Below the pieces are notes generated by a model. The model worked only from the letters and a program-made list of their open reading frames with translations. It ran no database searches and was not told the DNA's origin. From an uncultured virus (IMG/VR IMGVR_UViG_3300027969_000078) (taxonomy: Duplodnaviria; Heunggongvirae; Uroviricota; Caudoviricetes), in IMG/VR virus record IMGVR_UViG_3300027969_000078: a stretch of 64,000 nt of DNA; one strand, 5' to 3'. The translations under genes were made by a program, and so were the position numbers. Position 1 is the first letter of the stretch, and each line of letters starts with the position of its first letter. Below, piece after piece: positions 1 to 42,922 of this stretch.

Positions 1-127
1 TGATTGTTGTTCCACCTAGAATTGCAATAATCCCAGTACCGTTAGATGTGTAGTTATAGGCACCAGCGGTTGCACTAATTGCCGCAGTTTGAGCGCCTGC
101 AACCCCGCCAGGATAGTAAACAGAAAC
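1..127 (+). repeat. 127-bp exact direct repeat, copy 1
   Basis: tgattgttgttccacc...gtaaacagaaac is identical to 40636-40762; the copies diverge at 128 (c) vs 40763 (t). Confidence 0.97.
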
Positions 128-3100
128 CGTTGTAGGACCTGATGCACCTGTGGTTCCTTGCGTACCTTGAGTTCCTGTACCAGTTATTCCTTGTGTACCA
201 GTTAAGCCCTGAGTACCAGTAAGACCCGTTGTACCTTGTGCGCCAAAAGTACCTTGTGTACCTGTTGCGCCCTGAGTTCCTGTAATGCCCTGAGAACCTG
301 TAGCACCAATTGTGCCTTGATTTCCAGTTGTGCCTTGTAGTCCAGTTTGACCTTGGATACCAGCAACACCTTGGCTGCCAGTATTTCCTTGAATGCCATT
401 TAGACCTTGAACACCTTGGGAACCAGTAGCGCCTAATGTACCTTGAGTTCCAATTACACCTTGAGAACCAGTAACGCCTTGCGCTCCCGTATGTCCTTGA
501 ATTCCAATAGTGCCTTGCGCGCCCGTGGTTCCTTGTGCGCCATCTGCACCATTTGCGCCAGTAGCACCTTGCACGCCATTGATACCCTGAGAACCAGTAG
601 TACCTTGAGCACCATTAACGCCGTTTGTTCCTTGCGTTCCGTTGGTGCCTTGCGTTCCGTTAGCACCAGTTGTTCCCTGTGCGCCATTGGTTCCGTTAGT
701 ACCAGATGTGCCTTGTGTTCCGTTTAATCCTTGGGAACCAGCAATACCTTGCAAACCAATTGTGCCTTGCGCACCAGTATTTCCTGTTGTTCCTTGTGCG
801 CCCTTTGCGGCTAATACAGACCAATAGAAAGTATCTGTAATCGCAGTAGCAACAGGTACAAAGCGAAGTGCGGCATAAGATTGTCCGTTATATGTGACAA
901 CGCTATTAACCGCATACGCGAGGTCTACATCCCACGCACCATAGTTAATAAATCCAAGTCCTTGAATACCTTGAATGCCTGTAGTGCCTTGCGCACCTTG
1001 CGCACCAGTAATTCCCTGAGTGCCTTGCAAGCCAACGGTGCCTTGTGTTCCGTCATTACCTTGGATGCCGACTGCGCCTTGTGTGCCAGTTGTACCCTGA
1101 GCACCAATAGAACCCTGAGCGCCAATTAGACCTTGTGAACCCGTGTTACCAACAATGCCTTGCGTTCCGTTGCTACCCTGAATACCTTGTAGACCGACAG
1201 TACCTTGAATTCCGTTAGCACCATTTGTGCCTGAAGTTCCTTGTGAGCCTGTGGCACCAATAGCGCCTTGAATTGAATAAGCAACTTGAGTTGCTGTAAC
1301 AATTACAGAAGGCACATTTGGCGCAGCATCAAGAGCCGCTGGTGTTGCGATCTGAATTGCCGTGCTGTCTGAGGCGTAGAATAGTTGAATGTAATCGCCA
1401 GCGGTAAGAGGCAAGACAAAATTGACGGTCAGGACATCCATCTCATTAGTCTGCGTTAATGTTATGTCGCTGTTTGACTCTTGCACATAGGAACCATTTA
1501 CGCCAAGCCACGCTTGAAAGTTTTTGGTTGAAGCAGAAGTTGATTTAACTTGCAATGAGAAAGTAATGCTGTATGTGCCACTTGCAGTAAAGTCAATATG
1601 ACTTGAACTGCTTCGGTTTACACCAAAACTATCTGAGGTGTAGCCAATGTTAATTGCGTAAGCGGTGTTAATAGCGGCAGGTGTTTGTACTGTGTTATCG
1701 TAGAATGAACCGTAGTATGCAAGTGAACCACCAGCACCAGTAAGTCCCTGAACACCTTGCGCACCAAATTGACCTTGTACACCTTGCGTACCTTGAATTC
1801 CAGTATTGCCCTGAATACCAGTAATGCCCTGTACGCCTTGGCTACCAATTACTCCCTGAGTACCTTGCGCGCCAACAACGCCTTGGATTCCAATTGCGCC
1901 TTGCGTTCCTGTGACTCCCTGAGCACCAATTGTTCCTTGATGTCCTTCAAGACCTTGTGCGCCTTGGATTCCTCCTACGCCTTGCGCGCCAACAATTCCT
2001 TGCGTACCTTGCAAACCAAGTAGTCCCTGAGTACCCGTTGTTCCCTGTGAGCCAGTATTACCTGTTGAGCCTGTAATACCTTGCACACCTCCTAGTCCTT
2101 GCGCGCCCTGAACACCGACAGCACCTTGAGTACCAATTGCGCCCTGCGTACCTGTCGTACCTTGAGAGCCGTTGAGTCCTGAAGTACCCTGGGAGCCAAC
2201 AACACCCTGAACGCCTTGCAGACCAGTTGTTCCCTGAGTTCCTTGGGAACCAGTTACTCCTTGCGGACCTTCTAAACCTTGTGAACCAATTGCACCTTGT
2301 GTTCCGACAGTACCTTGCGAACCAGTTTGTCCGACAGTACCTTGCGCGCCCGTATTACCAAATGTTCCTTGACTTCCAATTGTTCCCTGCGCACCTGTAT
2401 CGCCAGTTGTACCTTGCGTACCCTGCATACCTGTAATGCCTTGGACACCGATTGTTCCTTGTGCGCCCTGTGCACCAGTCAATCCTTGTGTTCCCTGTGT
2501 GCCGTTAATTCCTTGAACGCCAATAATTCCTTGCGCACCCTGCGCACCTGTTTGTCCCTGAACACCTTGTGTTCCTTGCAGACCTACTGAACCTTGAATA
2601 CCAGTTAGTCCTTGGCTTCCCGTATTTCCTTGAACGCCTTGTAAACCAATAATGCCTTGAACGCCAGTCGTGCCTTGTGTTCCCTGAATACCTAAAGCGC
2701 CTTGAATTCCTGTTTGTCCTTGCGCACCAACAAGACCCTGCACGCCTTGTAAGCCTGTTAAGCCCGTTGTTCCTTGTACGCCAACCGCACCTTGCGCGCC
2801 TGTTGTACCCTGCACGCCAGTAGCCTGAAGGATGACAATAATTGGCGCGTTGTTTGCAAAACCAGTTGTGCCCGTACCTGCACTTGATACAAGCGTGACT
2901 GGAATGCTCCAGTAGGTTGTATTGTCAACTTTGTTTCCGCTTACTATCCACTTTTGAGTATTAAGTTGGCTGGTACTATCCTGTAAAGTAATAAAAGTAT
3001 TTGTTGCTATTGAAGTAAGCAATACATCAATGTTGGTTCCATTGGTTGTAGTATCGCTAATGCGTAATTGTGTGGCAGCGGTTTGTGTGGCTGTGTTATA

Positions 3101-3334
3101 CCCGACTTTTCCACTTGTAGGGTCGCCAGTTAGGTTAGCCGTAGTGATTGCATAGTCAAAGTAAGATGATGATGAACCGCTTGCACCAGTATTACCTTGA
3201 ATGCCTTGCGCTCCGCGTAAACCTTGGATACCTATACTGCCTTGAATACCAGTAGTACCTTGAATACCGCGATTACCCGCACCTGTTACAACTACAACTG
3301 GTACTGAACCATCTACAATATCGTAATTAGGCAT
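1..3334 (-). CDS. Collagen-like fibre protein, open at the window edge; about 1470 aa if A is circularised into 40635-39557
   Basis: Not in the ORF track. ATG at 3334 (MPNYDIVDGSVPVVVVTGAGNRGIQG); long G-X-Q-G-X-X tracts with three globular inserts; frame spot-checked at 1262-1320 and 2-170; ends GPTTVSVYYPGGVAG, matching the C-terminal part of the 39557-42922 protein. Confidence 0.9.
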   Translation of the reverse strand, partial: MPNYDIVDGSVPVVVVTGAGNRGIQGTTGIQGSIGIQGLRGAQGIQGNTGASGSSSSYFDYAITTANLTGDPTSGKVGYNTATQTAATQLRISDTTTNGTNIDVLLTSIATNTFITLQDSTSQLNTQKWIVSGNKVDNTTYWSIPVTLVSSAGTGTTGFANNAPIIVILQATGVQGTTGAQGAVGVQGTTGLTGLQGVQGLVGAQGQTGIQGALGIQGTQGTTGVQGIIGLQGVQGNTGSQGLTGIQGSVGLQGTQGVQGQTGAQGAQGIIGVQGINGTQGTQGLTGAQGAQGTIGVQGITGMQGTQGTTGDTGAQGTIGSQGTFGNTGAQGTVGQTGSQGTVGTQGAIGSQGLEGPQGVTGSQGTQGTTGLQGVQGVVGSQGTSGLNGSQGTTGTQGAIGTQGAVGVQGAQGLGGVQGITGSTGNTGSQGTTGTQGLLGLQGTQGIVGAQGVGGIQGAQGLEGHQGTIGAQGVTGTQGAIGIQGVVGAQGTQGVIGSQGVQGITGIQGNTGIQGTQGVQGQFGAQGVQGLTGAGGSLAYYGSFYDNTVQTPAAINTAYAINIGYTSDSFGVNRSSSSHIDFTASGTYSITFSLQVKSTSASTKNFQAWLGVNGSYVQESNSDITLTQTNEMDVLTVNFVLPLTAGDYIQLFYASDSTAIQIATPAALDAAPNVPSVIVTATQVAYSIQGAIGATGSQGTSGTNGANGIQGTVGLQGIQGSNGTQGIVGNTGSQGLIGAQGSIGAQGTTGTQGAVGIQGNDGTQGTVGLQGTQGITGAQGAQGTTGIQGIQGLGFINYGAWDVDLAYAVNSVVTYNGQSYAALRFVPVATAITDTFYWSVLAAKGAQGTTGNTGAQGTIGLQGIAGSQGLNGTQGTSGTNGTNGAQGTTGANGTQGTNGTQGTNGVNGAQGTTGSQGINGVQGATGANGADGAQGTTGAQGTIGIQGHTGAQGVTGSQGVIGTQGTLGATGSQGVQGLNGIQGNTGSQGVAGIQGQTGLQGTTGNQGTIGATGSQGITGTQGATGTQGTFGAQGTTGLTGTQGLTGTQGITGTGTQGTQGTTGASGPTTVSVYYPGGVAGAQTAAISATAGAYNYTSNGTGIIAILGGTTI

Positions 3335-3719
3335 TGCGCGAGACCTCTGCATCTACTTGTACTGTGCCGCGACCTAAGAAAATGGATTCGGCTTGGTTGG
3401 TTGGGATAAGGCGTAAATCCCACTCATACTTTCCAGGCGCGCAGTTAATTGCGAGACTGATTTGTACCTGTGGGGAAGTGGTTGCATTAAATACAATGCT
3501 TCCGTTTGCTACTGTGCCTTCTAACACCGCTGTACGCGCCATTGCACTCGTACGGAATTGTACTATAGGAGTATATCCCGCGAGGCTTATTGGTAAATCT
3601 AAATCAAAGTTTCCATTAGCATCTTGTTCACAGTATGAAAAAACAATAGCCCACTCCTGATACTGGCGTAATCTAAGGTTTAGCGGATCAGGCGTTTGAT
3701 TGAACGACTGTGCTGTCAT
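3327..3719 (-). CDS. BppU-N-like small structural/fibre-adaptor protein
   Basis: PISLAGYT...GKYEWDL...LGRGTVQVDAEVSR pattern; overlaps the collagen gene start. Confidence 0.55.
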   Translation of the reverse strand: MTAQSFNQTPDPLNLRLRQYQEWAIVFSYCEQDANGNFDLDLPISLAGYTPIVQFRTSAMARTAVLEGTVANGSIVFNATTSPQVQISLAINCAPGKYEWDLRLIPTNQAESIFLGRGTVQVDAEVSRNA

Positions 3720-5094
3720 TTGATTCTCCTATGGGAATGTTGCACTTAGGGCAGGTGCGTACTGATTTGGCATAAGGCGTCTTGCATTGTGGACAAAAAA
3801 CTGCCATTGCTGATAGGAAGTTGATTGCCGCTGAGCCTTCACTCAATTCGGTAAGCGCCCAGACTAATGCATCCATTCTGTCAGGCGAGTCCTGTGTAAT
3901 TCCTGGTTCGTATTCACACATTTGATCTTCTAATTCACCAAAGTATCCAACGTGATGTACACGCCCTTGTTCATATAGTGCTGCAATAGGCTCTGCGCGT
4001 AAGTGCTTTCCCCGTGTCGCTGTGACCTTCTTTGTGGAGACTGTCGGCTTTACCTGTTGCAGTAAATGTATTACAAGGTCGCCGCCGTTGTTTGTTTCAG
4101 CAACGATACGATCTGCCTTGTACTTTTCGTAGGATTTAACAGCCACGGTAGCCCACTCTAGAGGGCTTGCCTTTGTAGTGCTGTCATCCAAAACATAATA
4201 ATGTCCATCCGCGGTCATTCCGCAGGTAACAATTCCCGTACTATCACTATCCTCATTATTAGTAACCGCAGGGTCTACACCTACAACAACACGGCTGAAT
4301 GGCGGAATTGCGTCTAATTTAATTCGTGAGGCTTCAATGCCCGTGCGTGTCCATAATGCCCCAGGATTATCGTCAAGGATTTCACCAAATAGTTCTTGCC
4401 TACCTAAGCGAGTGTTCTCGTACTTATTCTGTAAGGTAATAAGTGTGCTTGCTGCAAGGTTGTCTTTGTTCTCATATGTACTACCGCGAGTAACTATTGT
4501 CTCAGGATCTTTTAGGATTTCCTTAACGATCTTAGTAGGTCGTGGGGTAGTGGTAACTATTACTTGTGGGTTCTGCCCTAATCGCAAACCAAATTGCAAT
4601 TGGTCAAATGTTTCAGGGCTAGCCCAAGCCGCTAACTCATCACACCAAGCACCGTGATGTTGCGGTCCGCGAAGTCGGTCAGGCTTCTCCGCACTAAATC
4701 CTTTTAATCGTGAGCCATTAGGCAGTATGTAAGAACTGCGTGACTTATTCCAAGCGTTAGGGTCATACACACCATAGCGAGTAAGTACGCTTATGATTCC
4801 AGACTCACCTTCAAAGCAGGTGTCAATAACGTCAGCACTTGTTGGTGCAACTACAGCCCAGCGTGTATTGGGATTAGTTACTGCCTTCCAAACTATCCAT
4901 TCCGCGCCCGTCCTCGTCTTGCCCCACCCGCGACCCGACAGGATCAGCCAAGTTCTCCAAGTTGTCTCTGGCGGTAACTGATTCGCTCTCGCTGATAGGT
5001 TCTGCCATTGCACTCTCGCCTGTGCTATTCGCATCGTCTCTTGTGAGTAACGCGGCAAGTTCTCTAACTGCTCTGTCAATACTGTCATCGCCAT
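3688..5094 (-). CDS. terL: Terminase large subunit (phage A)
   Basis: Walker A GRGWGKT, Walker B AWCDE, TTTP coupling motif, nuclease GVDPA...DRMDA; extra C-terminal CxxC...CxxC; start uncertain. Confidence 0.95.
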   Translation of the reverse strand: MAMTVLTEQLENLPRYSQETMRIAQARVQWQNLSARANQLPPETTWRTWLILSGRGWGKTRTGAEWIVWKAVTNPNTRWAVVAPTSADVIDTCFEGESGIISVLTRYGVYDPNAWNKSRSSYILPNGSRLKGFSAEKPDRLRGPQHHGAWCDELAAWASPETFDQLQFGLRLGQNPQVIVTTTPRPTKIVKEILKDPETIVTRGSTYENKDNLAASTLITLQNKYENTRLGRQELFGEILDDNPGALWTRTGIEASRIKLDAIPPFSRVVVGVDPAVTNNEDSDSTGIVTCGMTADGHYYVLDDSTTKASPLEWATVAVKSYEKYKADRIVAETNNGGDLVIHLLQQVKPTVSTKKVTATRGKHLRAEPIAALYEQGRVHHVGYFGELEDQMCEYEPGITQDSPDRMDALVWALTELSEGSAAINFLSAMAVFCPQCKTPYAKSVRTCPKCNIPIGESNDSTVVQSNA

Positions 5095-8597: not shown

Positions 8598-8925
8598 AAT
8601 TTTCACCTTCTGTTAGTTGATAGGAGCCTTCGTTGTCCAATAATACCTTACTTCCGTCTGGAAGGTGTAAGGGATACTCGGCGGGTTGCGCCCAACTTGG
8701 CACTATCCAACCCATCTCTATAGATTTCGCAGGGTTCATATGTATTGCATTGGTTCCCATATTGTGGCACTCGTGATGCACGGCTATAAGGTTGCAGACT
8801 TCATCCTTACCACCTTGCGACTTTAACCTGCGGTGGTGAAGTGCGAAGTTTTGACCTGCTTTGCCGCACGCTTCGCAGTAATTTCCAGCGCGGCTGAGTA
8901 CAACTTCCGCTATTTTTTTATCCAT
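8572..8925 (-). CDS. HNH endonuclease
   Basis: CEAC...LHHRRLKSQGG...NLIAVHHECH. Confidence 0.85.
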   Translation of the reverse strand: MDKKIAEVVLSRAGNYCEACGKAGQNFALHHRRLKSQGGKDEVCNLIAVHHECHNMGTNAIHMNPAKSIEMGWIVPSWAQPAEYPLHLPDGSKVLLDNEGSYQLTEGENYGSDRNYW

Positions 8926-13877: not shown

Positions 13878-14237
13878 TTAGTCTGTTCCCTCGTCTATTG
13901 GCTTTGTGCGAGGTTTTTTTAGAGCCTCGCGCACATAGTCAGGCATAGGGATTGCAAAATGATTTATGAAGTCATCTGCATTAAAGGGCTGAGCCACGAT
14001 GGTTGGTTTTTCTGCTGGTTGCTTTAATTTTTTGGCAGCCATTAACAATGTTGCTCGGCTAAGTGGCATTCCGTCTAAGGCTACCGCCTCAACAAGTGGC
14101 AAAATCTTAGCAAAAGTGGTTTCCTTTAGAATTTGCTGCAACTGACCAGCCATTTGACCTCGTGCTGGTGCAATATCGCCCGTGTAATTTCTAAAGTACA
14201 CTTTAATAAGTTCTGCCACTTGTTCGTTTATGGTCAT
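13878..14237 (-). CDS. Hypothetical protein
   Basis: ATGA overlap with whiB. Confidence 0.6.
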   Translation of the reverse strand: MTINEQVAELIKVYFRNYTGDIAPARGQMAGQLQQILKETTFAKILPLVEAVALDGMPLSRATLLMAAKKLKQPAEKPTIVAQPFNADDFINHFAIPMPDYVREALKKPRTKPIDEGTD

Positions 14238-14602
14238 TTGTTAAAAGTAAAATCTCTCTCAACGGACAACACGGTCTGCACCAATGTTGATAAACCTATG
14301 TTAAGTGCTTTTAAGTCTCGCCTAAGCCATCCCATAACCCGTGTGTCCAGTTTGCCTGCATAAATATGGCGGCGTTCATCTTCGGATAAACCACCCCAAA
14401 ATCCATAAGGCTCAAAGGCTGTTGCTGCTTGTAGACATTCCTTTTGTATTGGACAGTCAAAGCACATTCTGCGTAAGTGGTTGTAGTTGAGTCCTTCAAT
14501 AAGTAACTCGGTTCGTGGGGTAAAGAATAGATCGGTCTCTAACCCTTGGCACGATGCGCGTTCCCATTCAATTTTATTTCTATCAACTACTTTCCTGTAC
14601 AT
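14234..14602 (-). CDS. whiB: WhiB-family Fe-S transcription factor
   Basis: WERASC...LFF...CFDCPIQKECL...GFWGGLSEDERR. Confidence 0.9.
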   Translation of the reverse strand: MYRKVVDRNKIEWERASCQGLETDLFFTPRTELLIEGLNYNHLRRMCFDCPIQKECLQAATAFEPYGFWGGLSEDERRHIYAGKLDTRVMGWLRRDLKALNIGLSTLVQTVLSVERDFTFNK

Positions 14603-21015: not shown

Positions 21016-21215
21016 TTTTTAACCAATTCCACTACCAAATCTTTTATGATTGCAACTTCGTGTTTTAAGCCAGTAAGTTCGTCTCTCATACTGCTGCCGC
21101 CATTAGGTTTAAGTTCATTAAGATAGTGCTTAACCAACCATCTTACGGATGTAGCAAATGCACTGATAATTGCTAAGACGGATACGATAAGACTTGCCCA
21201 GTTTTGTGCAGACAC
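21012..21215 (-). CDS. Small membrane protein of the lysis cassette
   Basis: N-terminal TM segment; LKPNGGSSMRD. Confidence 0.6.
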   Translation of the reverse strand: MSAQNWASLIVSVLAIISAFATSVRWLVKHYLNELKPNGGSSMRDELTGLKHEVAIIKDLVVELVKK

Positions 21216-24846: not shown

Positions 24847-26261
24847 TATTTAGTCCCTACTGGTACGCCATTTTTAGCGGCTTTAGCCATCTTTCGTTCA
24901 ATATCATTTGTGTTGGAAGCATACACCGTGACGTTTTGAATTGTGGTTGTACCGCCACCACCACCTGTTGTGGGCGTACCTGCGCCCGCTACGATTCCAG
25001 TCTCTTTTCCTGGTGCCACAAAACCTGCCAAACTTGGCGTTTTAATTTTTTTATCAGCAAGACTGTCCAACGATTTGGAAAACTCGCCAATAGATACGGC
25101 AAACTTATCAACGCCATCAGCCATACCTTTCAGAAATCCCATTCCTGGAATATAGGACATTGCTCGCATAAGTTTAGCAATTCCGCCTATAAGGTAACCA
25201 AATCCCTTAACGATCATTTGAATTCCAGTTACAATTCCCTTACGGAACCAGTCAAATTTATTCCACGCCGCCACAAATGCTGCACCTAGTATTACAAGAA
25301 GTCCTACAAAAAACATAATAGGGTTTGCTCTTATTGCAGCATTAAGTCCGTGCATAGCAAATGTAAATACGCTGGTTGATGCGGCTTGCGCGTATGTCCA
25401 AAATGCATATGCTTGTTGAACTGCCTTGACCGCTGCTGTCACCATTGCATAAGTTTTAAGAATACCCATAACTGTGAGCACAATTCCGCCAAAAACCAAT
25501 AGCGCAGTACCATTTGTGCTGATATATCCTATGAACGCGGAAAGTATTGGAAGAACATACATACCTATTGTTTCAAATAAGTTGCCCATCTTTTCTTTAA
25601 GTACGGCTACGCGGCCAGAAAAAGTCTCGGTGTATGCAATAGCCGAGCCGCCAATTTTCGCATTTAATTCATCAAACGCTTTGGCTATTGCTTTATTCTT
25701 AGGCAGGTTTTCATCAAGGGAAATGCCCATTTGCTTAAATGCTTTAGCGTTACCCATTGTGGCGCGCTGTAAAATTTGCGCTGCCGAACCAATACCAATT
25801 TGCTTATGTCTTGCAAAATCCGCCGACATAGCCAATAATTTTTGTGATTGCTCTACATCACCAGTAGCGGTGACCAAAGTTCCCATAGCGTTAATGACTT
25901 CGGAACCTTGAAAGCCTAACTGATAAAACGAATCTGCTGCGGCTAGGATGTCGCCTTGGGCTTTTGAACTTGTAACACCTACGTTGCTTAAAGCCATATT
26001 TAATCTTGTGGTTTCTACCTCAAGTTGTTTGACTTCGTTTTTGGCGCCATTGATTTCATTAACAAAAGTCATAATGCCAGTTGTTAAAAGATTTCCACCA
26101 AGTACACCAAGGATTGTGGTCTTTAGGCTTCCCAGCGAACCTTGCAATTTGCTTGCTTGCGAGCCAATTTTTGCAAGACCTTGATTTGCTTTAGCAACAC
26201 CAGATGCCACGCCAGAAGCATCAACCTGTACTTGCACACTTAATGGTGGAATCTCACTCAT
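24846..26261 (-). CDS. Tape measure protein (short, 471 aa)
   Basis: Ala/Gly-rich helical protein with TM-like segments and ANPI motif; follows the chaperones. Confidence 0.85.
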   Translation of the reverse strand: MSEIPPLSVQVQVDASGVASGVAKANQGLAKIGSQASKLQGSLGSLKTTILGVLGGNLLTTGIMTFVNEINGAKNEVKQLEVETTRLNMALSNVGVTSSKAQGDILAAADSFYQLGFQGSEVINAMGTLVTATGDVEQSQKLLAMSADFARHKQIGIGSAAQILQRATMGNAKAFKQMGISLDENLPKNKAIAKAFDELNAKIGGSAIAYTETFSGRVAVLKEKMGNLFETIGMYVLPILSAFIGYISTNGTALLVFGGIVLTVMGILKTYAMVTAAVKAVQQAYAFWTYAQAASTSVFTFAMHGLNAAIRANPIMFFVGLLVILGAAFVAAWNKFDWFRKGIVTGIQMIVKGFGYLIGGIAKLMRAMSYIPGMGFLKGMADGVDKFAVSIGEFSKSLDSLADKKIKTPSLAGFVAPGKETGIVAGAGTPTTGGGGGTTTIQNVTVYASNTNDIERKMAKAAKNGVPVGTK

Positions 26262-26686
26262 TATGCTCTCCTTAGGTGTTTAGCAATAATTTGCTGAATA
26301 ATGTTGCTTTTTCTAAATTGTTCTAATGCTGGCTGCATATAAGGAAAATGTTGCCCGTTCGTCCAAGTAGGCGCGCCACCCAATTCAACGGCTCTTGCAT
26401 AGACCATATACGCACCAGCCTCGGCAACATAAATACCAAAGCCGACTCGGTGACTTGAACCCCGAATACTACGGCGCAAGTTACCAGTAACGTTCATTGG
26501 CGGAAAACCCGATGCCGCAGGATAACCCACAGACTTACGATCACCTTTAATTTGTCTCATTGCAGTACCAGCAAGTTGCTGACCTATTTCGGCAGCAGCA
26601 ATACCAAGGACAATGTCTGCCTTTTGTTGGTACAAAGTCAAGGCTGCGGTAACTTCTGGCAAGTTATTTGTTACGCGCATTTTCAA
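26261..26686 (-). CDS. HK97 gp10-like tail completion protein
   Basis: TGNLRRSI...YARAVELG...PYMQPA. Confidence 0.75.
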   Translation of the reverse strand: MKMRVTNNLPEVTAALTLYQQKADIVLGIAAAEIGQQLAGTAMRQIKGDRKSVGYPAASGFPPMNVTGNLRRSIRGSSHRVGFGIYVAEAGAYMVYARAVELGGAPTWTNGQHFPYMQPALEQFRKSNIIQQIIAKHLRRA

Positions 26687-27199
26687 CCTCCACTACAATG
26701 TTGTTAATTGCTAAGACCCACGCAACTTTTTGCGCAGGTTGATTATCTACTTCTTCGGGTGTCCAACCAAATTCTTTTGCACATACATAGTATTCCCAAT
26801 GGTCATCGGGATATAGCATATCTTCGTGCCGCGAACTACCAAGCAATACATCTTTTAGTCGCTGGAGTTGGCGATATCTACTTTTGGGTCGTTTGCACTT
26901 CCTTCGGCCATATCAGGGAACAAGTAGTCCTGCGCTGACTTGGTTTCCTCAACCAGCACATTAAAGTCTTTTGGCGTGAGTTCTTCAAGCGATGCAATTC
27001 TAATTGCTGGCGGGATTAGATCAAACGACCATTCAACTATCATTACCGACAACAACCCGTTAATTAACGCAACGGCTTGCATCATTCCTTCTTCGTCTCC
27101 TGCCGCTTTAATGACTTTATTGCGGTCCTTAATAAGCAAGGTTGCAGGGTCGCGTAACTTGACTGTGGCTCCACTTGGGAGTGTAATTATTCTTGACAT
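26664..27199 (-). CDS. Tail assembly chaperones G (26855-27199) and GT via -1 frameshift
   Basis: Slippery C CCA AAA at 26888-26882; the -1 frame continues into ...LLGSSRHED...FGWTPEEVD. Confidence 0.8.
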
Positions 27200-27282
27200 T
27201 GGTTCCTTCCATCTGCCTTCGTTGGGTTTGGGTTGAACTGGGGTAGGGGAAGGCGGCCTACCCCAGCCAACATTGTCTCAGG

Positions 27283-28272
27283 TTACTGGTATGTACCTGA
27301 AGGTTTAGCGTTCTGGAGTGTCCACTTGATGTTGCTGTAGCCACCAGTTGAACCTGCATCGGTTGTGTTAGCAATAGCGCGAACATCAACATCAATTTCT
27401 ACAAAGTCCTTGTCGCGAGCAATAACAGCGGCTGTGTAAGCACCCTTTGTAACTGTAAATGCAATCTGTGTTGCTGATGCACCTGTTCCTTGTGACCAGT
27501 TAAGTGTCATTGCTGGTTGTGTGTTTGTAAGGTAACGAGTAAGTTCTGTATCATTTTCCATTACAAACTTAAACTTACCTTTAGTCTCAAGTGCGCCAAG
27601 AAATACCTGATAAGGGTCCTTTGTATTAGCAAGCCCAAAGATAGGCGTTACTGGACGAGTCAATGTAATATCGCCATCAACAACATTAGAAACTGTTGCT
27701 CCTGCAATAGATACCGTGGCAAGCCATACTGGCGTAGGTAGCACGGTTGAGAATGTGGGTGTTGGGGTTGATGCTGTTTGTGATAACCAGCCCATTGCTT
27801 TTGCATCATAGTCCAACAAACCATCTGCCGTGAACTTTAAAGTCATATCGCTAATTTGGATGCCAGGATATGCGCGTACATTTGCCGCATAAAAGTCGGT
27901 CAACGTAAACGCAGTAGGTTGAGCATCTGCTGCTACCGCCGAAGCATTCTTTAGCGAAATTGTGTGGGTGTAAGGTGCAGTTGAACCTGATGTCGCAACG
28001 CTACCCATAATTCCACCAAGTACATATCCGATAGTATCTGGGTAAACTGGGCCACCAAAGTCGTATGTTGAGTTACTGCGACCCTGAACATAAGCATAGT
28101 CTTTTACAAGCGAACCTTGCGCCATATCGGATGCTGTAAGTTCACCAATAACATCCGCAGGTTTTAACTTGGATGATTCAACTGCAATAAAATCTGTTGG
28201 TGCTACGGGAGTACCTTTGGTTACTTCTTTGGCAATACCTAAGTAACTCCGCGCTGTATTTTGTACTGTCAT
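27283..28272 (-). CDS. Major tail tube protein
   Basis: YLGIAKEVTKGTPVAPT N-terminus; position before the TAC genes. Confidence 0.85.
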   Translation of the reverse strand: MTVQNTARSYLGIAKEVTKGTPVAPTDFIAVESSKLKPADVIGELTASDMAQGSLVKDYAYVQGRSNSTYDFGGPVYPDTIGYVLGGIMGSVATSGSTAPYTHTISLKNASAVAADAQPTAFTLTDFYAANVRAYPGIQISDMTLKFTADGLLDYDAKAMGWLSQTASTPTPTFSTVLPTPVWLATVSIAGATVSNVVDGDITLTRPVTPIFGLANTKDPYQVFLGALETKGKFKFVMENDTELTRYLTNTQPAMTLNWSQGTGASATQIAFTVTKGAYTAAVIARDKDFVEIDVDVRAIANTTDAGSTGGYSNIKWTLQNAKPSGTYQ

Positions 28273-34605: not shown

Positions 34606-34636
34606 TTTGTTCTCCTTAGATCATTTAGTATATCGG

Positions 34637-35443
34637 TTAATCAATGAAAATACTCTCGTCAGTATCGTCATTTGAACTTAGGTCAAAGTATGGCGCCAAA
34701 GCGCACATACAATTTGGATGGGCTGGCGGTTCGCTGTCGCCCGACGGGAAGGTATCACCTATGCCTATAGGGGAAGCATCTGCATTGTCTTGGCATAAGT
34801 CACAACCTTCCGCGACCAGCCACTCCACTTGATCAACCTGCGCTCGTTCGTATTCATCGCGTGAGGCTACGGACATTGCTCTACTCATCTCGGTCTGAGC
34901 AATAATTAAAGCCTGTGAAGGATCATCAATAATTGAGTCAATCATCTGCGCTGTTTGTTGAGGTGTAAAACCCTTTTCCAAACCAGTTGCTAACGCTGTG
35001 CCGATACGATCTAACTTGGTGCTTATTACTTCATCGGCAATTACTATCTTACGGGAGTCAAGTAAGGACTGTAAGCCACCTCTAGGCTTAACCAATGCTG
35101 CTGCACTAGGTAACCCAGGTTTCCAAGTAGACCAGTTTACTGTCGCTACGCTAACATCCTTCTTTAAACCTTTCAGGCGGGTTGAAGCAACCTTGGCACC
35201 CAGCGTATAACCATCCGCATACAAGCGCGCTAACGCAACTTGTACAGGTTTTTTGTCGGCTATTACTTGAGTACGAGCCCAGTCTCTAGCCGTTTTAGGC
35301 GAAACTGAACCACCTGCGGGGTGGGTTTCAGCCCAAGATTGGGCTATCGCATCACCATCCAGGGCAGACCTAAATGCTTTACGAATTCTAGTCGCGTTCT
35401 TTGCAGCAACTCTTACAACTACCGTCTTTTCAGGCCACTTCAT
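34637..35443 (-). CDS. MuF/gpF-like minor head protein
   Basis: IAQTEMSRA...CDLC...PPAHPNCMC. Confidence 0.85.
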   Translation of the reverse strand: MKWPEKTVVVRVAAKNATRIRKAFRSALDGDAIAQSWAETHPAGGSVSPKTARDWARTQVIADKKPVQVALARLYADGYTLGAKVASTRLKGLKKDVSVATVNWSTWKPGLPSAAALVKPRGGLQSLLDSRKIVIADEVISTKLDRIGTALATGLEKGFTPQQTAQMIDSIIDDPSQALIIAQTEMSRAMSVASRDEYERAQVDQVEWLVAEGCDLCQDNADASPIGIGDTFPSGDSEPPAHPNCMCALAPYFDLSSNDDTDESIFID

Positions 35444-37329
35444 TAGATACCTAGATAATGTTCCGCGTACCAACGAGCGCTATCTACATCCTTAGTATCA
35501 ACAAACTTATTTAAGATTTCGGCATATGTTTCATCTAGTACTTGAAATTCAAATGCTCGCGAAGGTGTTCCTTTGCGTAACCAGCGAAGGAATTTTTTTA
35601 CTTCTTCCTCAGCATCAACAGGTTTGGCTTCAGGCTTATCTTCAGGATTTGCCTCTACAGGTACTTCCTCCACAGGTTTTTCGTCAGCGACAGGTACTTC
35701 GTCAGCGGCAGGTTCTTCTTCCGTTCCAAATCCCGCAAGTGGGTCTACTGGAGGTACTGCTGGGATAAGACCATCAGGACCGAAGAAATAAATACTTGGA
35801 CCAGCGACAAGCATTGGCATATCAGCCTCAGGTGTTTCAATAAGAGGTAAACCAAGTTCCGCACGGTTCTCATTAAGGGTTATTGAACCATTCTTCTTGC
35901 GAATATCATCTCGCGATGCTGTCTCAGCAGTATTAGTGCGCTCGCTAGGTGCGAGGCGGAACTCTAGTTCGCGTGGCATCCCAAGAAAACGATATGAAAG
36001 TGCCGAAATCATTTGCGAAACCCAGTTAGCGGTAGGCAAGATGCCGATTGCTTCGCCTGATTGTGCCTCACCTTGCTGTAGACCTGATGCACCTAACCCG
36101 CCACCACCGCCATTGAACCCAATTTCAGATGGTAGTACGCCAAAGTGTCCAGTAATAGATGAGACTAAGTAGTTATCCATCGCATCCGAGAACTTATCTG
36201 AGTAACCTTCTTCAAAATGTAATTTGCCACCAGGAACTAACAAGCGCATACGATTACGCTGTGCTGTTTGTCCTGATAGATCGTCATTATAGATATCTTC
36301 ATATGCTCTGATTTGGTCAGGCGTCATAGTGGTTGATTCAGGCAACTCTAAGTATGACTTAGGCATTGTGCCATCTGTGAACTCTGAACGAATCCATTGT
36401 TGGCGACGCAAGTAAATATCAGCAAGTGGTAAGCAACGCTCTGTAGGAGATAGTCCATACACACTATTGGAACGACGATTGCGTACAAAATAAGCAAGGT
36501 CATCCGAGGTAAATTCGCCATCCGCAACCTCATCATCTATTCCAGCATTAAACTCTGAGCGTGGGAAGCCAAAAAGAATTTGTTGGAATGCTGGACCAGA
36601 ACTTGGCTCTGGGCGCATACCGCGATCATCAAGTAGGGGTTTAATAGTTGAACCGTCAAGGATTTGGAACCCTCTAATTTCACCGCCTACAGTTACCTGT
36701 GGCCATATAGCCCAAGCATCAAGAACATCTATTTCTTCCATCGCCATTGACAACCAGTCCACAAAAGACAAACCATTTTGAGGGTCTGGCGTTTCCCAAA
36801 ACTTACGCAAACGACCAATCTCTGCTGAAAACTCTTCGCGTGATTGAGCAAGCGCAGTAAGGTGATTACCACCTTGTTCCGAGATGATGCGCTCTGTTGC
36901 GGCTTCACTAAGCACAATGTCCCACTTTAGGGAAGTAATTTTAGACTTTCTTACTTCAATACAACGGCGCACGATATCAATTTGATCTGATACTGCACGC
37001 AAAGTCTTAAAAGGTACAAGTCTGTTATCAGATACGTTGATGTTTTGAGCAACTTGGAATTCATAACGGCGCGGGTCTGGGCGACCTGTATCTGTACGAA
37101 GCGGGTTAATGGCTCCAGGAAAGATAGGCATACCAGGAGCAAAAGGAACACTTGCAAGTAGCGGGTTACGAGGTAAGGCTGTACTTACATTTGAGCCGTA
37201 CTGAGTCTGGGCAATACCAGCAGCACTCTGCATTTGTTGCATAGTCATTGTTCCAGCACCAGCAGGAAGATTTGGTGCCTTAACGATTTCATCTGCAACG
37301 CGTTTTGCAAATCTGTCAAACAGACCCAT
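35443..37329 (-). CDS. Portal protein (phage A)
   Basis: IVRRCIE, YGLSPTE, FGVLPSEIG, TLNENRAELGLP. Confidence 0.9.
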   Translation of the reverse strand: MGLFDRFAKRVADEIVKAPNLPAGAGTMTMQQMQSAAGIAQTQYGSNVSTALPRNPLLASVPFAPGMPIFPGAINPLRTDTGRPDPRRYEFQVAQNINVSDNRLVPFKTLRAVSDQIDIVRRCIEVRKSKITSLKWDIVLSEAATERIISEQGGNHLTALAQSREEFSAEIGRLRKFWETPDPQNGLSFVDWLSMAMEEIDVLDAWAIWPQVTVGGEIRGFQILDGSTIKPLLDDRGMRPEPSSGPAFQQILFGFPRSEFNAGIDDEVADGEFTSDDLAYFVRNRRSNSVYGLSPTERCLPLADIYLRRQQWIRSEFTDGTMPKSYLELPESTTMTPDQIRAYEDIYNDDLSGQTAQRNRMRLLVPGGKLHFEEGYSDKFSDAMDNYLVSSITGHFGVLPSEIGFNGGGGGLGASGLQQGEAQSGEAIGILPTANWVSQMISALSYRFLGMPRELEFRLAPSERTNTAETASRDDIRKKNGSITLNENRAELGLPLIETPEADMPMLVAGPSIYFFGPDGLIPAVPPVDPLAGFGTEEEPAADEVPVADEKPVEEVPVEANPEDKPEAKPVDAEEEVKKFLRWLRKGTPSRAFEFQVLDETYAEILNKFVDTKDVDSARWYAEHYLGI

Positions 37330-37341
37330 TGTCACTCCTAT

Positions 37342-37356
37342 TGGTATTGTATTCCT
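37342..37356 (+). promoter_or_regulatory. Extended -10 leaderless promoter of the inverted cassette
   Basis: TGG-TATTGT-N6-ATG(37357); no RBS. Confidence 0.55.
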
Positions 37357-38355
37357 ATGAACTTAGTAGAGAAGGCAGTCTCTAATGGCGGCAAATTAGC
37401 CCCGTTAGTTATACCCAACGGTCTTACATCTGGAACAGGTTTGATGAACCCTTCCATTTATGTAGACCACGATAATGATATTCTGGTCAATCTTCGTCAC
37501 GTTAACTATACCTTAGTACACGCCGAAAACCAGCAAAGTTTTCCCAGTCGTTATGGTCCTTTGACCTACCTGCACCCTGAAAAAGATCAACGCTTGGTAA
37601 CCGAAAACTATTTGTGCCGCCTTGATAGCGACTTGAATATGGCCGACTTTACCAAGGTTGAAATGCAGTCGCTACACGAACCCATTTGGGAATTCGTGGG
37701 GCTTGAGGATGCTCGTGTTGTCCAATGGAACAATGAGTACTACCTTATTGGAGTCCGCAGAGACACCACCACAACTGGCATTGGTCGTATGGAATACACG
37801 CAGATTGACCTTGATAAGGCTAATTGGACAGCGAAGGAAATTCATCGCAAGCGCATAGCGGCTCCTGATGCGGATGACTCATACTGCGAAAAGAACTGGA
37901 TGCCTGTAGTAGATAGACCTTATACCTTCGTAAAGTGGACTATGCCTACCGAGGTTGTTTATTCCAGTCCATTTGGACAAGATACTGAGCAAATAATGTT
38001 GCGCCACACACCAGTACCTACCAAGGATCAACGAGGCGGCTCGCAGGTAATTAGGTGGGGCAATATGTACATCTGCATTACCCACGAAGTAGATTTGTTC
38101 AAGAATTACCTGCAACAAAAGGATGCCATCTACCGCCATCGCGTAGTTATATGGGATCAACAATTTAACTTTGCAGGTATGTCTGAGCCGTTTAGTTTCC
38201 TAGACGCCCGTGTGGAATTCTGTGTAGGTGCGGCTGAATACAATGGCAACTTGTTGGTCAGTTTTGGCTTTCAGGACAACGCGGCATTTGTACTGAGCGT
38301 GCCTAAAGTTGTTGTTGATGACCTTATTTTGGAAGGATTAAAGTATGAGCATTGA
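37357..38355 (+). CDS. Five-bladed beta-propeller glycosyltransferase/phosphorylase-like protein (GH130/GT91/GT108-like)
   Basis: NPSI, GLEDARVV, EKNWMP, RGGSQ and VEFCVG motifs; start moved to ATG 37357 to avoid the portal overlap. Confidence 0.6.
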   Translation: MNLVEKAVSNGGKLAPLVIPNGLTSGTGLMNPSIYVDHDNDILVNLRHVNYTLVHAENQQSFPSRYGPLTYLHPEKDQRLVTENYLCRLDSDLNMADFTKVEMQSLHEPIWEFVGLEDARVVQWNNEYYLIGVRRDTTTTGIGRMEYTQIDLDKANWTAKEIHRKRIAAPDADDSYCEKNWMPVVDRPYTFVKWTMPTEVVYSSPFGQDTEQIMLRHTPVPTKDQRGGSQVIRWGNMYICITHEVDLFKNYLQQKDAIYRHRVVIWDQQFNFAGMSEPFSFLDARVEFCVGAAEYNGNLLVSFGFQDNAAFVLSVPKVVVDDLILEGLKYEH

Positions 38356-38902
38356 GGACTTGGTAATTGACCTATCCAAAGACCCGTTCAACCCACAACT
38401 AAACTTTGATGCTGCCGAGGCATATCTGGCATTAAACCAGAGTGCTAGTGCCGTGTCGTTCTACCTACGCTGTGCTGAATATAGCAACAAAAGTTCTTTG
38501 CTCACCTACACATCCTTGCTCAGGATATCTCAGTGCTTTAACGACCAGACTGGTAGAGAACACAGCGTAAGCAACTGCATATTGCAGGCAATTACGGTAC
38601 AGCCTGATCGCCCAGAGGCTTGGCTGTTGTTGTCTAAGTTCTATGAGTCTATGGGTCAATGGCAAGAAGTTTATACATATGCGCACGTTGGACTTGGCTG
38701 TTATGGAGAAGAACAACTGCCAGCCGATATAGGTTACGCTGGGACTTATACGCTGTACTTCCAAAAGGCAATAGCCGCTTGGTGGATAGGTCGTAAGGAC
38801 GAGGCACTTAATACGCTTAAGATTCTATCTAGTATGGACATCAACCCTATGTACAAGGATGCCGTTGCCTATAACTTGGAGAAACTAAATGCTCTGCTTT
38901 GA
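38345..38902 (+). CDS. TPR-repeat protein
   Basis: SAVSFYLRCAE...QPDRPEAWLLLSKFYE...AAWWIGRKDEA. Confidence 0.8.
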   Translation: MSIEDLVIDLSKDPFNPQLNFDAAEAYLALNQSASAVSFYLRCAEYSNKSSLLTYTSLLRISQCFNDQTGREHSVSNCILQAITVQPDRPEAWLLLSKFYESMGQWQEVYTYAHVGLGCYGEEQLPADIGYAGTYTLYFQKAIAAWWIGRKDEALNTLKILSSMDINPMYKDAVAYNLEKLNALL

Positions 38903-39551
38903 TATTGGTGCAAATCGTGGCGACTTTACTTTTGCCGCACTAGATAAAGGTTATGATGTTGTTGCTATTGAAGCAGCGCCAAAAGTATTTGGTGAACTTG
39001 TCAGCAACTTTATCTATAACCCACACGTAACCCCACTTAAATATGCCGTAAGTGGTAGCGATTACGAACGCGTAGAGTTTTACGAAGCCGAGGAAGATGG
39101 TTTATCTACCATTAACCTTGACTGGCTTACGAATGAGTCTATGCCTTATGCGGGCAAACCTTACAGAACCATAGCCGCAACAACAATTACTCTTGACACA
39201 TTAGCCCTAAAGTACGGAGTGCCTGACCTTATCAAGATTGATGTTGAAGGTGCAGAATGGTCCGTGTTCAAAGGACTTAGTTCCAAGATGGGAACGATTG
39301 CCTTTGAGTGGACTTTAGAAACTATGGCTGACCATCAACTACAACTTGAGTATTTATTACACGGCGGTTATAGTCAAGTAGGGTGCCAATATATTGAACA
39401 TCATTGCCAACAACCTGATGTTTGGTTTGACCTTAAAACTTTTGACCTAAACGCTTGGCACAATAAGAATAAAGTCTTATGGGAAAGCGGTTATTGGAAA
39501 AAGTCAGGCTTACGCCCCACAGCCGATGTTGGAATGCTGTGGGTGCGTTAA
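38889..39551 (+). CDS. FkbM-family SAM-dependent methyltransferase
   Basis: FDIGANRG...AIEA...TLD...LIKIDVEGAE. Confidence 0.9.
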   Translation: MLCFDIGANRGDFTFAALDKGYDVVAIEAAPKVFGELVSNFIYNPHVTPLKYAVSGSDYERVEFYEAEEDGLSTINLDWLTNESMPYAGKPYRTIAATTITLDTLALKYGVPDLIKIDVEGAEWSVFKGLSSKMGTIAFEWTLETMADHQLQLEYLLHGGYSQVGCQYIEHHCQQPDVWFDLKTFDLNAWHNKNKVLWESGYWKKSGLRPTADVGMLWVR

Positions 39552-39556
39552 GCCGA

Positions 39557-42500
39557 TTACGAAGTTACCGTTGCTTTTGTTAGAACGATGGACCCAGGAC
39601 CAGTTACTGGTGTAACTGGAGTAAGTTTACTTGTGCGAGGATATGTGCTGCTTGCGTCAAAGTAACCCGACAGTACGCTACCGCTTCCGTTATTAGTGAG
39701 AACTGGTTTACCAAAAATGGGGCTTTGAGGCCCAGTGTATGAGTTCCAAGTAACTCCACCGTCTGTGGATGTTTTATACGCACCGCTTGTGCCAGCATCA
39801 CCGCCGCCTGCGATTGCAATAGTGCTACCAACCTGAGTGGCTAAGCCAAAGTCTCCAGAAAGACCTACATTGCTTGTATTTATCCAAGTACCATTTAAGG
39901 TTGCGCACCTAAAAACAGTACCATCGCTAGCAATGTAAACATATGAACCATCAAGATGTGTAAAGAAAAACGAACCAGGAGAATAAAACGCAGGAAATAG
40001 CCCGCTAGAAACATACTGTGTCCAAGTGCCACTGGTTGGGTTTGCGTTAGAGTTGGTCCAGAATGTGATTGTTCCAAATGAAGGTCTGTCGGTAATTATC
40101 CACATACCATTTGTATAAGTAATGCCTTGTAATCTACTACTTGACCACGCGCCGCCGTTATTGCTTGAAGTATAAGTTACATTGTCAGTAGATGCATAAA
40201 CTTCATTTGGGGTAACATAAACATATCTTCCATTCGCGTATGCCAGAGAAGGATAAAGTTCATTCTGCGCAGAAAGAAAATTGAAATTCCAGTTAATTCC
40301 ATCAGTTGAATTAACTGCAACGCCATTAGAAATCACAACAAATCCTTGTGGACCACCAACTGCATTTACGGGGCTGCTACTAAAAGGACCAGGGTTGTTG
40401 TATTGAGTCCAAGTTACCGCATCTGATGACAAGTAGTAGTATGAACCAGATGGCGGGATAGCAATGTACTTACCTAAACCTGACGAATAAGCAACAGTCA
40501 CGCCATATGAAGGCATAAAAAATGCAGCAGACTCTAGTGTGCTACCCGCTTCAAGTGCTTTTGCTGTAATCATAGAGATAGATGTTGCATTTGTAGCAAG
40601 CGTCGCGGTTCCTGCTGAAGTACCGTCTGAAGGTGTGATTGTTGTTCCACCTAGAATTGCAATAATCCCAGTACCGTTAGATGTGTAGTTATAGGCACCA
40701 GCGGTTGCACTAATTGCCGCAGTTTGAGCGCCTGCAACCCCGCCAGGATAGTAAACAGAAACTGGACTTTCAACCGACTGCCAAGATGAGGTTGTTCCAT
40801 TTGTACTAAGATACTTGCCTGAGTTGCCAGTTTGACTTGGCACTACATAAGTTGTAGAGTCGGTAGCCACAAGAGTCTTGCTAGATGGAATAGTTGTTCC
40901 ATTGATAGATGTAGCAGTAGCCACACCGAGCACTGGAGTTATAAGTGTTGGGGTATTATCTACTACAAATTTAGTACCAGTACCAGTCTGTGATGCAATA
41001 GATGTTGCTGCGCCCACAGAGGTAATTGGACCAGTTAGATTGGTTGGCGCTATGACTGTTGTATCAAGATAGTTCTTGGTTACTACATCTTGTGCATTGG
41101 TAGGGTTGCCAACACCAGTAATCTTGTTGGTTCCCATAGCAATAGCACCCGACATTGTTCCACCAGCAAGTGGAAGCATAGTGTCAGCGTAAGCCTTGGT
41201 AGACGCATCTGTACTAACTGTAGGAGTTCCAAGACCTGTAATCTTATTAGAACCCATTGCGATAGCGCCTGACATCGTGCCACCAGCAAGAGGCAACTTA
41301 TTGGCTGCGTTTGCTACTGTTGCATACGTTGACGAAAGATTTACTGCTCCAGTTAATCCATCAACCGATAGAACTGAGTCAGTTGGTGTAAGTAGTTCCT
41401 GCCAGTTTCCAAGCGTAGATGCTGGAGTTGCTGTCAGGATAAAGGTTTTATTAACATCTGTTCGTACTGCAACATCTCCAGTTTGAGCAGTAAGAGCAAG
41501 CATTGCGGACTGTGTGGAGACAACAAATGTATCAGTAATGGTAACGTCTGGAATCTGAGCAGTTGTCAACTTACCATCTGCACCAAGTGACGCGACTCCA
41601 TTTGCTGCTCCCTTTTGAGTCAAAGGAATCATCAAATCGGCGTATGCCTTTGTTGCCGCATCAGTGCTTAATGTTGGTGTTCCAAGACTTGTAATTTTGA
41701 AACCACCGTTAGATACATCTGCGGTTGGGTTAGCAATCTTGGTGCGAGCAATAGCAGCAGAGTTATCAATGTCAGCATCTACAATGGTTCCGTTAGCAAT
41801 CATTGCGCTAGTAACAGTTCCTGTATCTGCCACCGTTACGGCTGTGCCGCTAATCTTTGTTTTGTCTATTGCTGCAGCGGAATTTATATCAGCGTTAACA
41901 ATAGTTCCATTGGCAATCATTGTGCTTGTAACTGTTCCAGTATCTGATTGAGTTACAGCAGTTCCAGCAATCTTTGTTGCTGTGATAGCAGCAGAAGCAT
42001 TAATGTCAGCATCTATAATGGTGTTAGCACCAATGGCTACTGTAATGGAAGCGTTAGCAGTTCCATCGAATGATGCAGAAGTACCGCTTACATCTCCTGC
42101 AAGGCTAATTGTGCGACCTGCAGCAAGGGCTGTGGCTGTGGCTGCGTTACCTGTAGTAGAACCAGAAGAACCAGTTACATTGCCTGTCACATTGCCTGTA
42201 AGGTTACCTGTTACGTTACCAGTAAGGTTACCTGTAAATGTTCCTGCAATAGCACCAGTACCAGTAATAGTTGGGCTTGTTAAAGTCTTATTAGTAATTG
42301 TTTGAGTTGTATCAGTTCCCACCAGAGTTGTTGTAGCATCTGGAATAGTTACTGTACGGTCAGCCGTAGGGTCTGCAACCGTAAGAGTTGTTTCAAAAGC
42401 ATCTGGAGTAGCACCTTCAAATACAATGTTTCCATCACCAAGGGTGAGGCTTGTAATCGTAGGCGTTGTAATTACTGGGGCAGTTAGTGTCTTATTGGTA

Positions 42501-42922
42501 AGAGTTTGAGTCTTTGATGTACCTACTACGTTGCCTTCACCTGATGCAATACCATGCATAGGGTGAGTGATAGTGCCATCGTTGTATGCACCAGTTGCTT
42601 CGATGTGTAGGTTGGCTTCGCGGAAGTCGCGGCCAATTGCCATGTGGCGAATTGCTGCACCAGCAGAGTGAGCCTGTCCTGTACCAGCGTTTTCAATACC
42701 ACGTACAATTGTTAGTACGTTTGTGGCAACGGCGGTAACATCTACAATTTCTTCAAGCGCTGTATCTGGGTCGATAACAGCGGTAAATGTTGTGCCAGCA
42801 GGGATGTCTGCTCCACCACGCAACGCTGAGCCTGATACTACAGTAGCGGTTGTTGCCGTATCTGTAATGCCTGCTGCTAGAGTAGTTTGCTGGGAACGGG
42901 ATGAGTATTTTCTTGTTGTCAT
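39557..42922 (-). CDS. Tail fibre: phage B shaft plus Asp-box/BNR beta-propeller C-terminus
   Basis: TGNVTGNL, IVNADI and LPLAGGTMSGAIAMG repeats; C-terminal SSDAVTW, STDGINW, STDGGVTW. Confidence 0.85.
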   Translation of the reverse strand: MTTRKYSSRSQQTTLAAGITDTATTATVVSGSALRGGADIPAGTTFTAVIDPDTALEEIVDVTAVATNVLTIVRGIENAGTGQAHSAGAAIRHMAIGRDFREANLHIEATGAYNDGTITHPMHGIASGEGNVVGTSKTQTLTNKTLTAPVITTPTITSLTLGDGNIVFEGATPDAFETTLTVADPTADRTVTIPDATTTLVGTDTTQTITNKTLTSPTITGTGAIAGTFTGNLTGNVTGNLTGNVTGNVTGSSGSTTGNAATATALAAGRTISLAGDVSGTSASFDGTANASITVAIGANTIIDADINASAAITATKIAGTAVTQSDTGTVTSTMIANGTIVNADINSAAAIDKTKISGTAVTVADTGTVTSAMIANGTIVDADIDNSAAIARTKIANPTADVSNGGFKITSLGTPTLSTDAATKAYADLMIPLTQKGAANGVASLGADGKLTTAQIPDVTITDTFVVSTQSAMLALTAQTGDVAVRTDVNKTFILTATPASTLGNWQELLTPTDSVLSVDGLTGAVNLSSTYATVANAANKLPLAGGTMSGAIAMGSNKITGLGTPTVSTDASTKAYADTMLPLAGGTMSGAIAMGTNKITGVGNPTNAQDVVTKNYLDTTVIAPTNLTGPITSVGAATSIASQTGTGTKFVVDNTPTLITPVLGVATATSINGTTIPSSKTLVATDSTTYVVPSQTGNSGKYLSTNGTTSSWQSVESPVSVYYPGGVAGAQTAAISATAGAYNYTSNGTGIIAILGGTTITPSDGTSAGTATLATNATSISMITAKALEAGSTLESAAFFMPSYGVTVAYSSGLGKYIAIPPSGSYYYLSSDAVTWTQYNNPGPFSSSPVNAVGGPQGFVVISNGVAVNSTDGINWNFNFLSAQNELYPSLAYANGRYVYVTPNEVYASTDNVTYTSSNNGGAWSSSRLQGITYTNGMWIITDRPSFGTITFWTNSNANPTSGTWTQYVSSGLFPAFYSPGSFFFTHLDGSYVYIASDGTVFRCATLNGTWINTSNVGLSGDFGLATQVGSTIAIAGGGDAGTSGAYKTSTDGGVTWNSYTGPQSPIFGKPVLTNNGSGSVLSGYFDASSTYPRTSKLTPVTPVTGPGSIVLTKATVTS
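40636..40762 (+). repeat. 127-bp exact direct repeat, copy 2
   Basis: Identical to 1-127. Confidence 0.97.

Follow-up and report, generated by a model that had tools for sequence, protein, structure and literature searches.

Phages of different genera and morphotypes have been documented to exchange C-terminal receptor-binding domains, as in E. coli phage tailspikes (PMC10408124) and Klebsiella phage receptor-binding proteins (bioRxiv 10.64898/2026.05.12.724579). LanE43AprE7 and F5 (here E7 and F5) are cultured phages of 'Ca. Planktophila'; the study that describes them linked a 5-kb variable island to host recognition and reported that CRISPR-based host links are missing for phages of 'Ca. 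Nanopelagicales', an order abundant in fresh water (PMC10202952). Here we describe a 401-residue C-terminal module common to the collagen fibre of one phage (A) and the tail fibre of another (B), both found in the IMG/VR record IMGVR_UViG_3300027969_000078 (hereafter the window, that is, the whole stretch of 64,000 nucleotides that was analysed). We consider it quite probable that the window is a chimeric contig of two phages of lake Actinobacteria, that both truly carry a recently exchanged fibre tip and that their hosts probably overlap. As in those reports on anchor-plus-domain exchange, a lineage-specific N-terminus is followed by a C-terminal domain common to distant phages, whose identity tracks recency. 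The present locus differs from them in its stalks (one a triple helix of collagen, the other a podovirus-type fibre), in its actinobacterial hosts, in its predicted propeller tip without match in Pfam, PHROG or PDB sequences, and in the absence of a conserved 5' DNA motif; the words 'propeller' and 'collagen' are absent from the main text of the Klebsiella preprint. New here are the uncatalogued module, the collagen-to-podovirus transfer and the exact breakpoints.

A sequence-only reading of the window had noticed that its first 127 bp are repeated at 40636-40762, and had proposed that a circular phage A ran into an unrelated phage B through an identical fibre segment. This repeat is exact and is the sole exact repeat of at least 20 bp, direct or inverted, in the 64 kb. 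Two terminase/portal/capsid sets were detected in the window by a PHROG family scan, phage A (1-40762) being siphovirus-type and phage B (40763 onward) podovirus-type. As had also been read, VSVYYPGG is the point at which both the collagen open reading frame (ORF; 2-3352) and the fibre ORF (39557-42922) run in frame into the shared segment. The features concerned are the following.

1..127, no strand: assembly overlap, the first 127 bp of the module, repeated at the closure of circle A (exact copy of 40636-40762)
128..3352, minus strand: collagen stalk of the A side fibre, 1,075 aa (Pfam Collagen), which continues into the module in the real genome
39557..40762, minus strand: shared 401-aa fibre-tip module, A allele, with a predicted beta-sandwich at ~1-66 and a predicted beta-propeller at ~85-388
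40431..40762, no strand: 332 bp identical in A and B, the assembler's crossing repeat (alignment and depth in run X1, see below)
40763..42922, minus strand: B tail-fibre stalk, 720 aa (phrog_38058), 100% match to the separate B contig L002

An exact search with the first 25 bases of the shared segment retrieved two IMG/VR contigs, one for each phage, in line with the proposed passage of the contig from A into B. The first (3300027734_000132, L001, 40,790 bp) is A alone and encodes a 1,476-aa collagen-plus-module ORF; this independent contig is 99.99% identical to the window, and because its ends overlap by 155 bp, A is a circle of 40,635 bp, as had been proposed. The second (3300009164_000164, L002, 38,700 bp) is B alone and shows 100% identity to window 40640-64000. 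It stops after the first 123 bp of the module and starts at module base 210, from where it runs to B's next gene; two contigs of A (L004 and L005) also start at module base 210. From this base, B equals A for exactly 123 bases and then diverges, and therefore the identical stretch is 332 bp (40431-40762): the 127-bp overlap was real, but the identity extends beyond it. Within this stretch, 86 bp absent from B's contig are taken as identical by assembly logic, and the B circle would then measure about 38,786 bp. Completeness was 100 for A and 98 for B.

Overlaps of 123 bp are found at the contig ends of L002, L004, L005 and L007 and in the end repeat of a third module-bearing phage, C (see below), and one of 127 bp in the window. 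These two lengths are usual maximal k values in assembly, and mis-resolution of repeats in de Bruijn graphs is known in metagenome assembly. The fixed-length overlap at contig ends is common to such cases and to this one, whereas the repeat here is a transferred biological segment and not a transposon or rRNA. The 332-bp identical stretch, longer than the assembler overlap, linked the incoming path of B to the outgoing path of A; the contig then went around circle A and halted on the first 127 bases of the repeat. Since B's own allele is 93.5% identical to that of A, the ORF at 39557-42922 joins the B stalk to the A allele. This ORF corresponds to no real protein, and the record is chimeric, so that its genomes are to be split.

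Contig depths in public runs were compared with the depth step at the join and the summed depth over the shared part that had been expected. In run X1, which may be the source of the window, A had a depth of 36.5-38 and the listed B pieces 9-15, a ratio of about 3:1, and depth rose to 55.6 in the identical bin and to 42-50 in the diverged part of the module. A possible extension of the summed depth over 37357-39551 did not hold, as this block had the depth of the rest of A (36.5-38) in X1. The same run has a loose contig end at 40762 that corresponds to A's collagen sequence. In run X2, the depth of A was 11.8 and that of the B pieces 2.5-4.5, and one contig begins at 40431. Run X4 contains only diverged relatives and run X3 thin B coverage; neither was counted as support. 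The window is best explained as an assembly chimera of two actinobacterial phages that occur together.

The whole module (1,206 bp) is common to A and B, as the sequence-only reading held, but it is not identical in them: the B allele has 65 differences from A over the 996 bp seen, that is 93.5% nucleotide identity to the stop codon, after which 72 bp precede a 754-aa gene. Outside the module, blastn between A and B gave a single match of 109 bp at 77%, in a small gene before the endolysin, which agrees with the view of two unrelated phages with a recently transferred module. This small membrane-protein-like gene (window 21094-21214; L007:3354-3459) has 74-77% DNA identity in A, B and C and is the only other match common to these three phages; the endolysin region is also common to B and C. 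Phage C (3300013006_000009, L006, 32,850 bp, complete, with a long-tail gene set) bears the module at 80% amino acid identity on a different collagen. In phage D (3300025410_000105, a fragment with a ribonucleotide reductase gene) the module has 38-41% identity and the same start and stop. There are thus at least four holders: A, B, C and D.

Regarding searches beyond these holders, a library of 1.84 billion representatives gave 634 matches at E<=0.001, among which, in the 150 listed, only D's protein aligned over the full length and one fragment matched the C-terminal third, the rest being propeller repeats. A metagenome scan returned only C again, a GTDB scan one weak match of 57 residues (33%) that is not a holder, and the ESM Atlas only leads below 0.8; INPHARED phages gave no match. 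Word-index protein searches failed to recover the known holders and their blanks carry little weight. The N-terminal sandwich showed no relative beyond the four holders. No description of the module was found in literature listings; the supplements of PMC10202952 may cover fibre genes.

Comparison of the alleles shows that they are a mosaic. A and B are identical over nucleotides 1-332, a part that constraint has not kept fixed, as C departs at about 12% of its sites; over nucleotides 333-660, 27 sites unite B with C versus 5 uniting A with B; over nucleotides 661-1203, 132 sites unite A with B versus 6, and A/B identity is about 95%. The first homologous base is the same, to within one, for A, B and C, and upstream only 7-15 of 45 bases are alike, as between unrelated sequences. 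By contrast with these, A and D agree upstream at 30 of 45 bases, in register, an agreement due in part to collagen periodicity; this junction suggests that QG-type collagen is the older home of the module. Downstream, B and C have a common TAG followed by 11 bases, a flank that A lacks, and native DNA resumes within ~1 and ~10 bases past it in B and C respectively. In B this native DNA is an element conserved in three relatives, and in C it is the last codons of a deleted native gene. The stop of A is TAA, apparently formed with native sequence that is present in the closest A relative. Besides B and C, a scan with the 3' flank retrieved six loci whose match lies outside a module context. Since B and C share the 11-nt flank missing from A, the donor was probably a third, A-like phage, most likely an unsampled QG-collagen phage of the A/D kind. 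We propose that a non-homologous, in-frame fusion at the stalk/tip boundary moved the module during co-infection, and that the alleles, once in several lineages, would have undergone homologous recombination yielding the patchwork. The near-base coincidence of the module ends across lineages is without explanation in this fusion model.

To place the module in its lineages, relatives were gathered via neighbouring conserved genes: the best 80 of 132 for B (one of which is B itself), 37 for A and 21 for C. The module was absent from all 79 B-relative, 37 A-relative and 21 C-relative loci. The B stalk is collinear with its relatives as far as a conserved ...GKYLSTNGTTSSW motif; among 50 distinct complete fibres of the B type, 21 have the PSQTGNSGKYLTT...W motif, and the B stalk departs from relatives six residues past the motif. 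A short ...LMGA-type motif ends 38 of these 50 fibres. All 26 B relatives in which both genes were seen have accessory genes (917-3,897 bp) between the fibre and the next conserved gene; this gap is 5.0 kb long in E7, and B has 72 bp there. Among relatives of A and C the collagen ends otherwise, and more genes come after it in most cases. The module of A, B and C occupies the place that a short stalk end and several separate tip genes have in relatives. Because the relatives' fibres end otherwise and are then followed by accessory genes, the module stands in place of a variable tip cassette in three lineages.

A protein of ~100-110 aa without Pfam match follows ...LMGA-type fibre genes in 35 B-type loci, in two A-type siphoviruses, in D and in the cultured E7 (for example L041:8699-9001, L055:4786-5115, L129:4505-4813, L143:7008-7340, L023:9844-10149 and L148:23261-23587). 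Possibly it forms a plug-and-socket system, common to different morphotypes, that takes tip proteins. That the module is a former stand-alone tip gene or a homologue of this accessory protein was unsupported, HMM and profile tests being not significant: the hhalign probability was about 1% or less, within column shuffles, and the likeness was by eye only. A trio of genes (GH130-like, TPR, FkbM) adjoins the collagen fibre gene in 21 of 24 A-relative loci and in the unrelated phage D (L023:3001-5228), in either orientation; in phage C, a glycosyltransferase follows the collagen. The trio may act on the fibre or on the host surface. A short dyad-symmetric intergenic element upstream of the 754-aa gene (L007:1010-1045) is kept in B, L041, L043 and L087 and is possibly a regulator site or a terminator.

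The structure of the module was modelled. A first model, from a 30-row alignment, was poor (pLDDT 58); the second, used here, has pLDDT 66 and pTM 0.62, and predicts, besides the N-terminal beta-rich domain (~1-66) and the propeller (~85-388), a last strand at 390-396 that might, as a guess, pair with the sandwich. Compared with solved propellers, the predicted fold gave Z scores of 17-19 (Z 18.8, rmsd 3.9, 290 aligned), with the PLL lectin first, tied with unrelated proteins. The earlier label 'Asp-box' fits the S-x-D-G-x-x-W-like motifs, which lie in nearly invariant columns, but no Pfam model matched at E<=0.05. The predicted propeller fold and these motifs are common to the module and to Asp-box (BNR) propellers (YCF48, sortilin, GH74, DUF6242-type phage repeats) and seven-bladed lectins such as PLL, and 22 of the 30 members of a wider alignment have a DUF6242 match. 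The module differs from these propellers in its 5-13% identity in a wide fold search where no match stands out, and in having no Pfam family. As to catalytic residues like those of sialidase or GH74 propellers, by eye no arginine is kept in all holders in their alignment. A trimer prediction for the collagen end plus sandwich scored 0.34 (mark 0.42). The dN/dS of the module between A and B was 0.36, against 0.08-0.09 for two control pairs of genes. Predicted loops, with 56% of the positions, take up 19 of the 25 A/B substitutions (76%). From its position and variation the module would be receptor-binding, and we lean clearly towards a non-catalytic, probably glycan-binding tip. It would act as a trimer-borne, probably sugar-binding receptor-recognition tip.

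WhiB (PF02467) was found above cut-off in the three complete holders A, B and C; the D record, 19% complete, gave no WhiB match, which is uninformative at that completeness. The B terminase is 83.6% identical to those of OX376640 and OX376641 (LanE43-AprE7 and AprF5). B resembles E7 and F5 in size (38.8 vs 38.9-39.1 kb), in WhiB, in a sigma-like gene (sigma match below cut-off) and in synteny, and with E7 it has 82-87% identity in terminase, portal, capsid and adaptor. By contrast, E7 has a 559-aa fibre ending in ...FMLMGA and a 5-kb island of tip genes where B has the fused module, which is absent from both E7 and F5. The 5.0-kb interval after the E7 fibre appears, by its size and position, to be the island described in PMC10202952. 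The endolysin of C is 79% identical to that of E7. That A and B both encode WhiB and occur in the same runs is compatible with a shared host, without proving it. The proposed account has the module moving during co-infection, and A and B therefore probably overlap in host; their hosts are likely shared or overlapping, most likely within 'Ca. Nanopelagicales'. The other features of the window are as follows.

3327..3719, minus strand: 130-aa gene before the collagen fibre, probably a fibre anchor or collar (phrog_1084)
3688..5094, minus strand: A terminase large subunit (PHROG)
14234..14602, minus strand: A WhiB-like regulator, marker of an actinobacterial host (phrog_472, PF02467)
21231..28272, minus strand: A long-tail module with S74-chaperone tail protein, minor tail, Dit, tape measure and tail tube (PHROG, Pfam)
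35443..37335, minus strand: A portal (phrog_2662, phrog_12)
37357..39551, plus strand: three-gene block, weak GH130-like, TPR and FkbM methyltransferase, of A and not shared with B (Pfam)
42931..43848, minus strand: B head-tail adaptor candidate (PF24175 SU10 adaptor, 22.5 bits for a cut-off of 27; 87% to E7)
47094..61833, minus strand: B capsid, large internal-protein candidates, portal and terminase (PHROG; 82-84% identity to E7 in capsid, portal and terminase), including the major head (47094-48281), portal (57551-59320) and terL (59971-61833)

The siphovirus morphotype of A is assigned from gene content only (tape measure, Dit and tail tube, no sheath match). For B, no tube or tape-measure match was found by PHROG among its genes in the window, those outside the window being mostly unscanned, and its 754-aa 'nozzle' has no named match. 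The C counterpart of the 130-aa gene matches phrog_1084 and phrog_3304 ('L-shaped tail fiber protein assembly'); C also carries a tandem pair of similar tail-tube-like genes, 139 and 129 aa long (L006:1179-1988). An HslV-family peptidase is encoded in A (window 8918-9481), in B (56982-57551) and also in C and E7. A long collagen side-fibre block separates the terminase from the portal, at a distance from the tail module, in A (window 3327-39551, spanning the closure of the circle) and in most of its relatives; three more distant ones (L140-L142) lack it.

Several observations weigh against our interpretation of two phages with an exchanged receptor-binding tip. No bridge over 40762|40763 was seen among the listed contig pieces of the public runs (542 others being unlisted), and the B junction is based on the window, L002 and the open frame, which may come from one sample. 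Many relative loci are incomplete, the full fibre gene being visible in 57 for B, 9 for A and 4 for C. The structure model is of only middling confidence and its lectin match is tied with unrelated propellers. Divergence is greater in the control pairs than in the A/B module pair, and this by itself can depress dN/dS. Phage A shares little with E7 (2 of 58 ORFs match). It has its own tail tip, hence its collagen fibre may be accessory. This last point bears on the idea that the module is shared and mobile yet serves as a structural, flotation or accessory adhesion cap, whose sharing would tell little about hosts. The fibre that bears the module in A and C is a collagen one encoded outside the tail module, both phages have a separate tail-tip protein, and propellers like the module's occur in hundreds of unrelated proteins (the 634 matches above). 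In B, however, the one fibre gene found terminates in the module, which takes the place of the entire variable island, the substitutions concentrate in loops, and DNA transfer between lytic phages needs a shared cell; we regard such a cap as unlikely. That the window is instead one genuine hybrid genome is given next to no credence: the reading frame runs unbroken through both junctions, but A closes alone, B carries a 3' module allele of its own that leads into the next B gene, one contig would have to contain two sets of packaging and capsid genes, and the depths differ about threefold. The separate A and B genomes and the depth step refute a hybrid as the main state.

The route of the module between phages was also weighed. 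Recent transfer stood from the earlier proposal of a swap between two phages, whereas a direct A-to-B passage is disfavoured and the holders number at least four. A single donation from A to B (or B to A) without third party is a doubtful possibility. It would account for the 332 identical bp, for the ~95% identity over nucleotides 661-1203 and for the presence of both phages in X1 and X2, and the in-register A/D junction, with collagen as the older context, would suit it. The TAG plus 11 bases that B and C share and A lacks, the middle third of B, nearer to C, and the A stop, seemingly built with native A-lineage sequence, argue against it. A discrete cassette with nearly fixed ends, moved by a sequence- or structure-directed mechanism, would explain why A, B and C start at the same base (within one) after upstream sequences that are hardly alike, and why B and C both end 11 nt past the stop with native DNA so close behind. 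Inspection of the ends by eye, though, revealed neither a terminal repeat nor a target duplication or recombinase, and in A the unit stops 11 nt sooner; selection to keep the first strand intact could account for the 5' end, for which only two independent events are required. We hold this cassette to be highly improbable; if true, it would mean directed host-range switching across lytic actinophage morphotypes, with the multi-gene tip set of each lineage replaced at once, and not a selected chance fusion.

Under the preferred reading, that of a fibre tip recently exchanged by fusion and recombination, a nearly identical fibre tip connects two siphovirus lineages with a relative of cultured Planktophila phages, and the base-level breakpoints are those of a swap caught nearly in the act. 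Encoded in a single gene and 401 aa long, the tip offers a compact candidate for a receptor-binding protein, testable on cultured strains.

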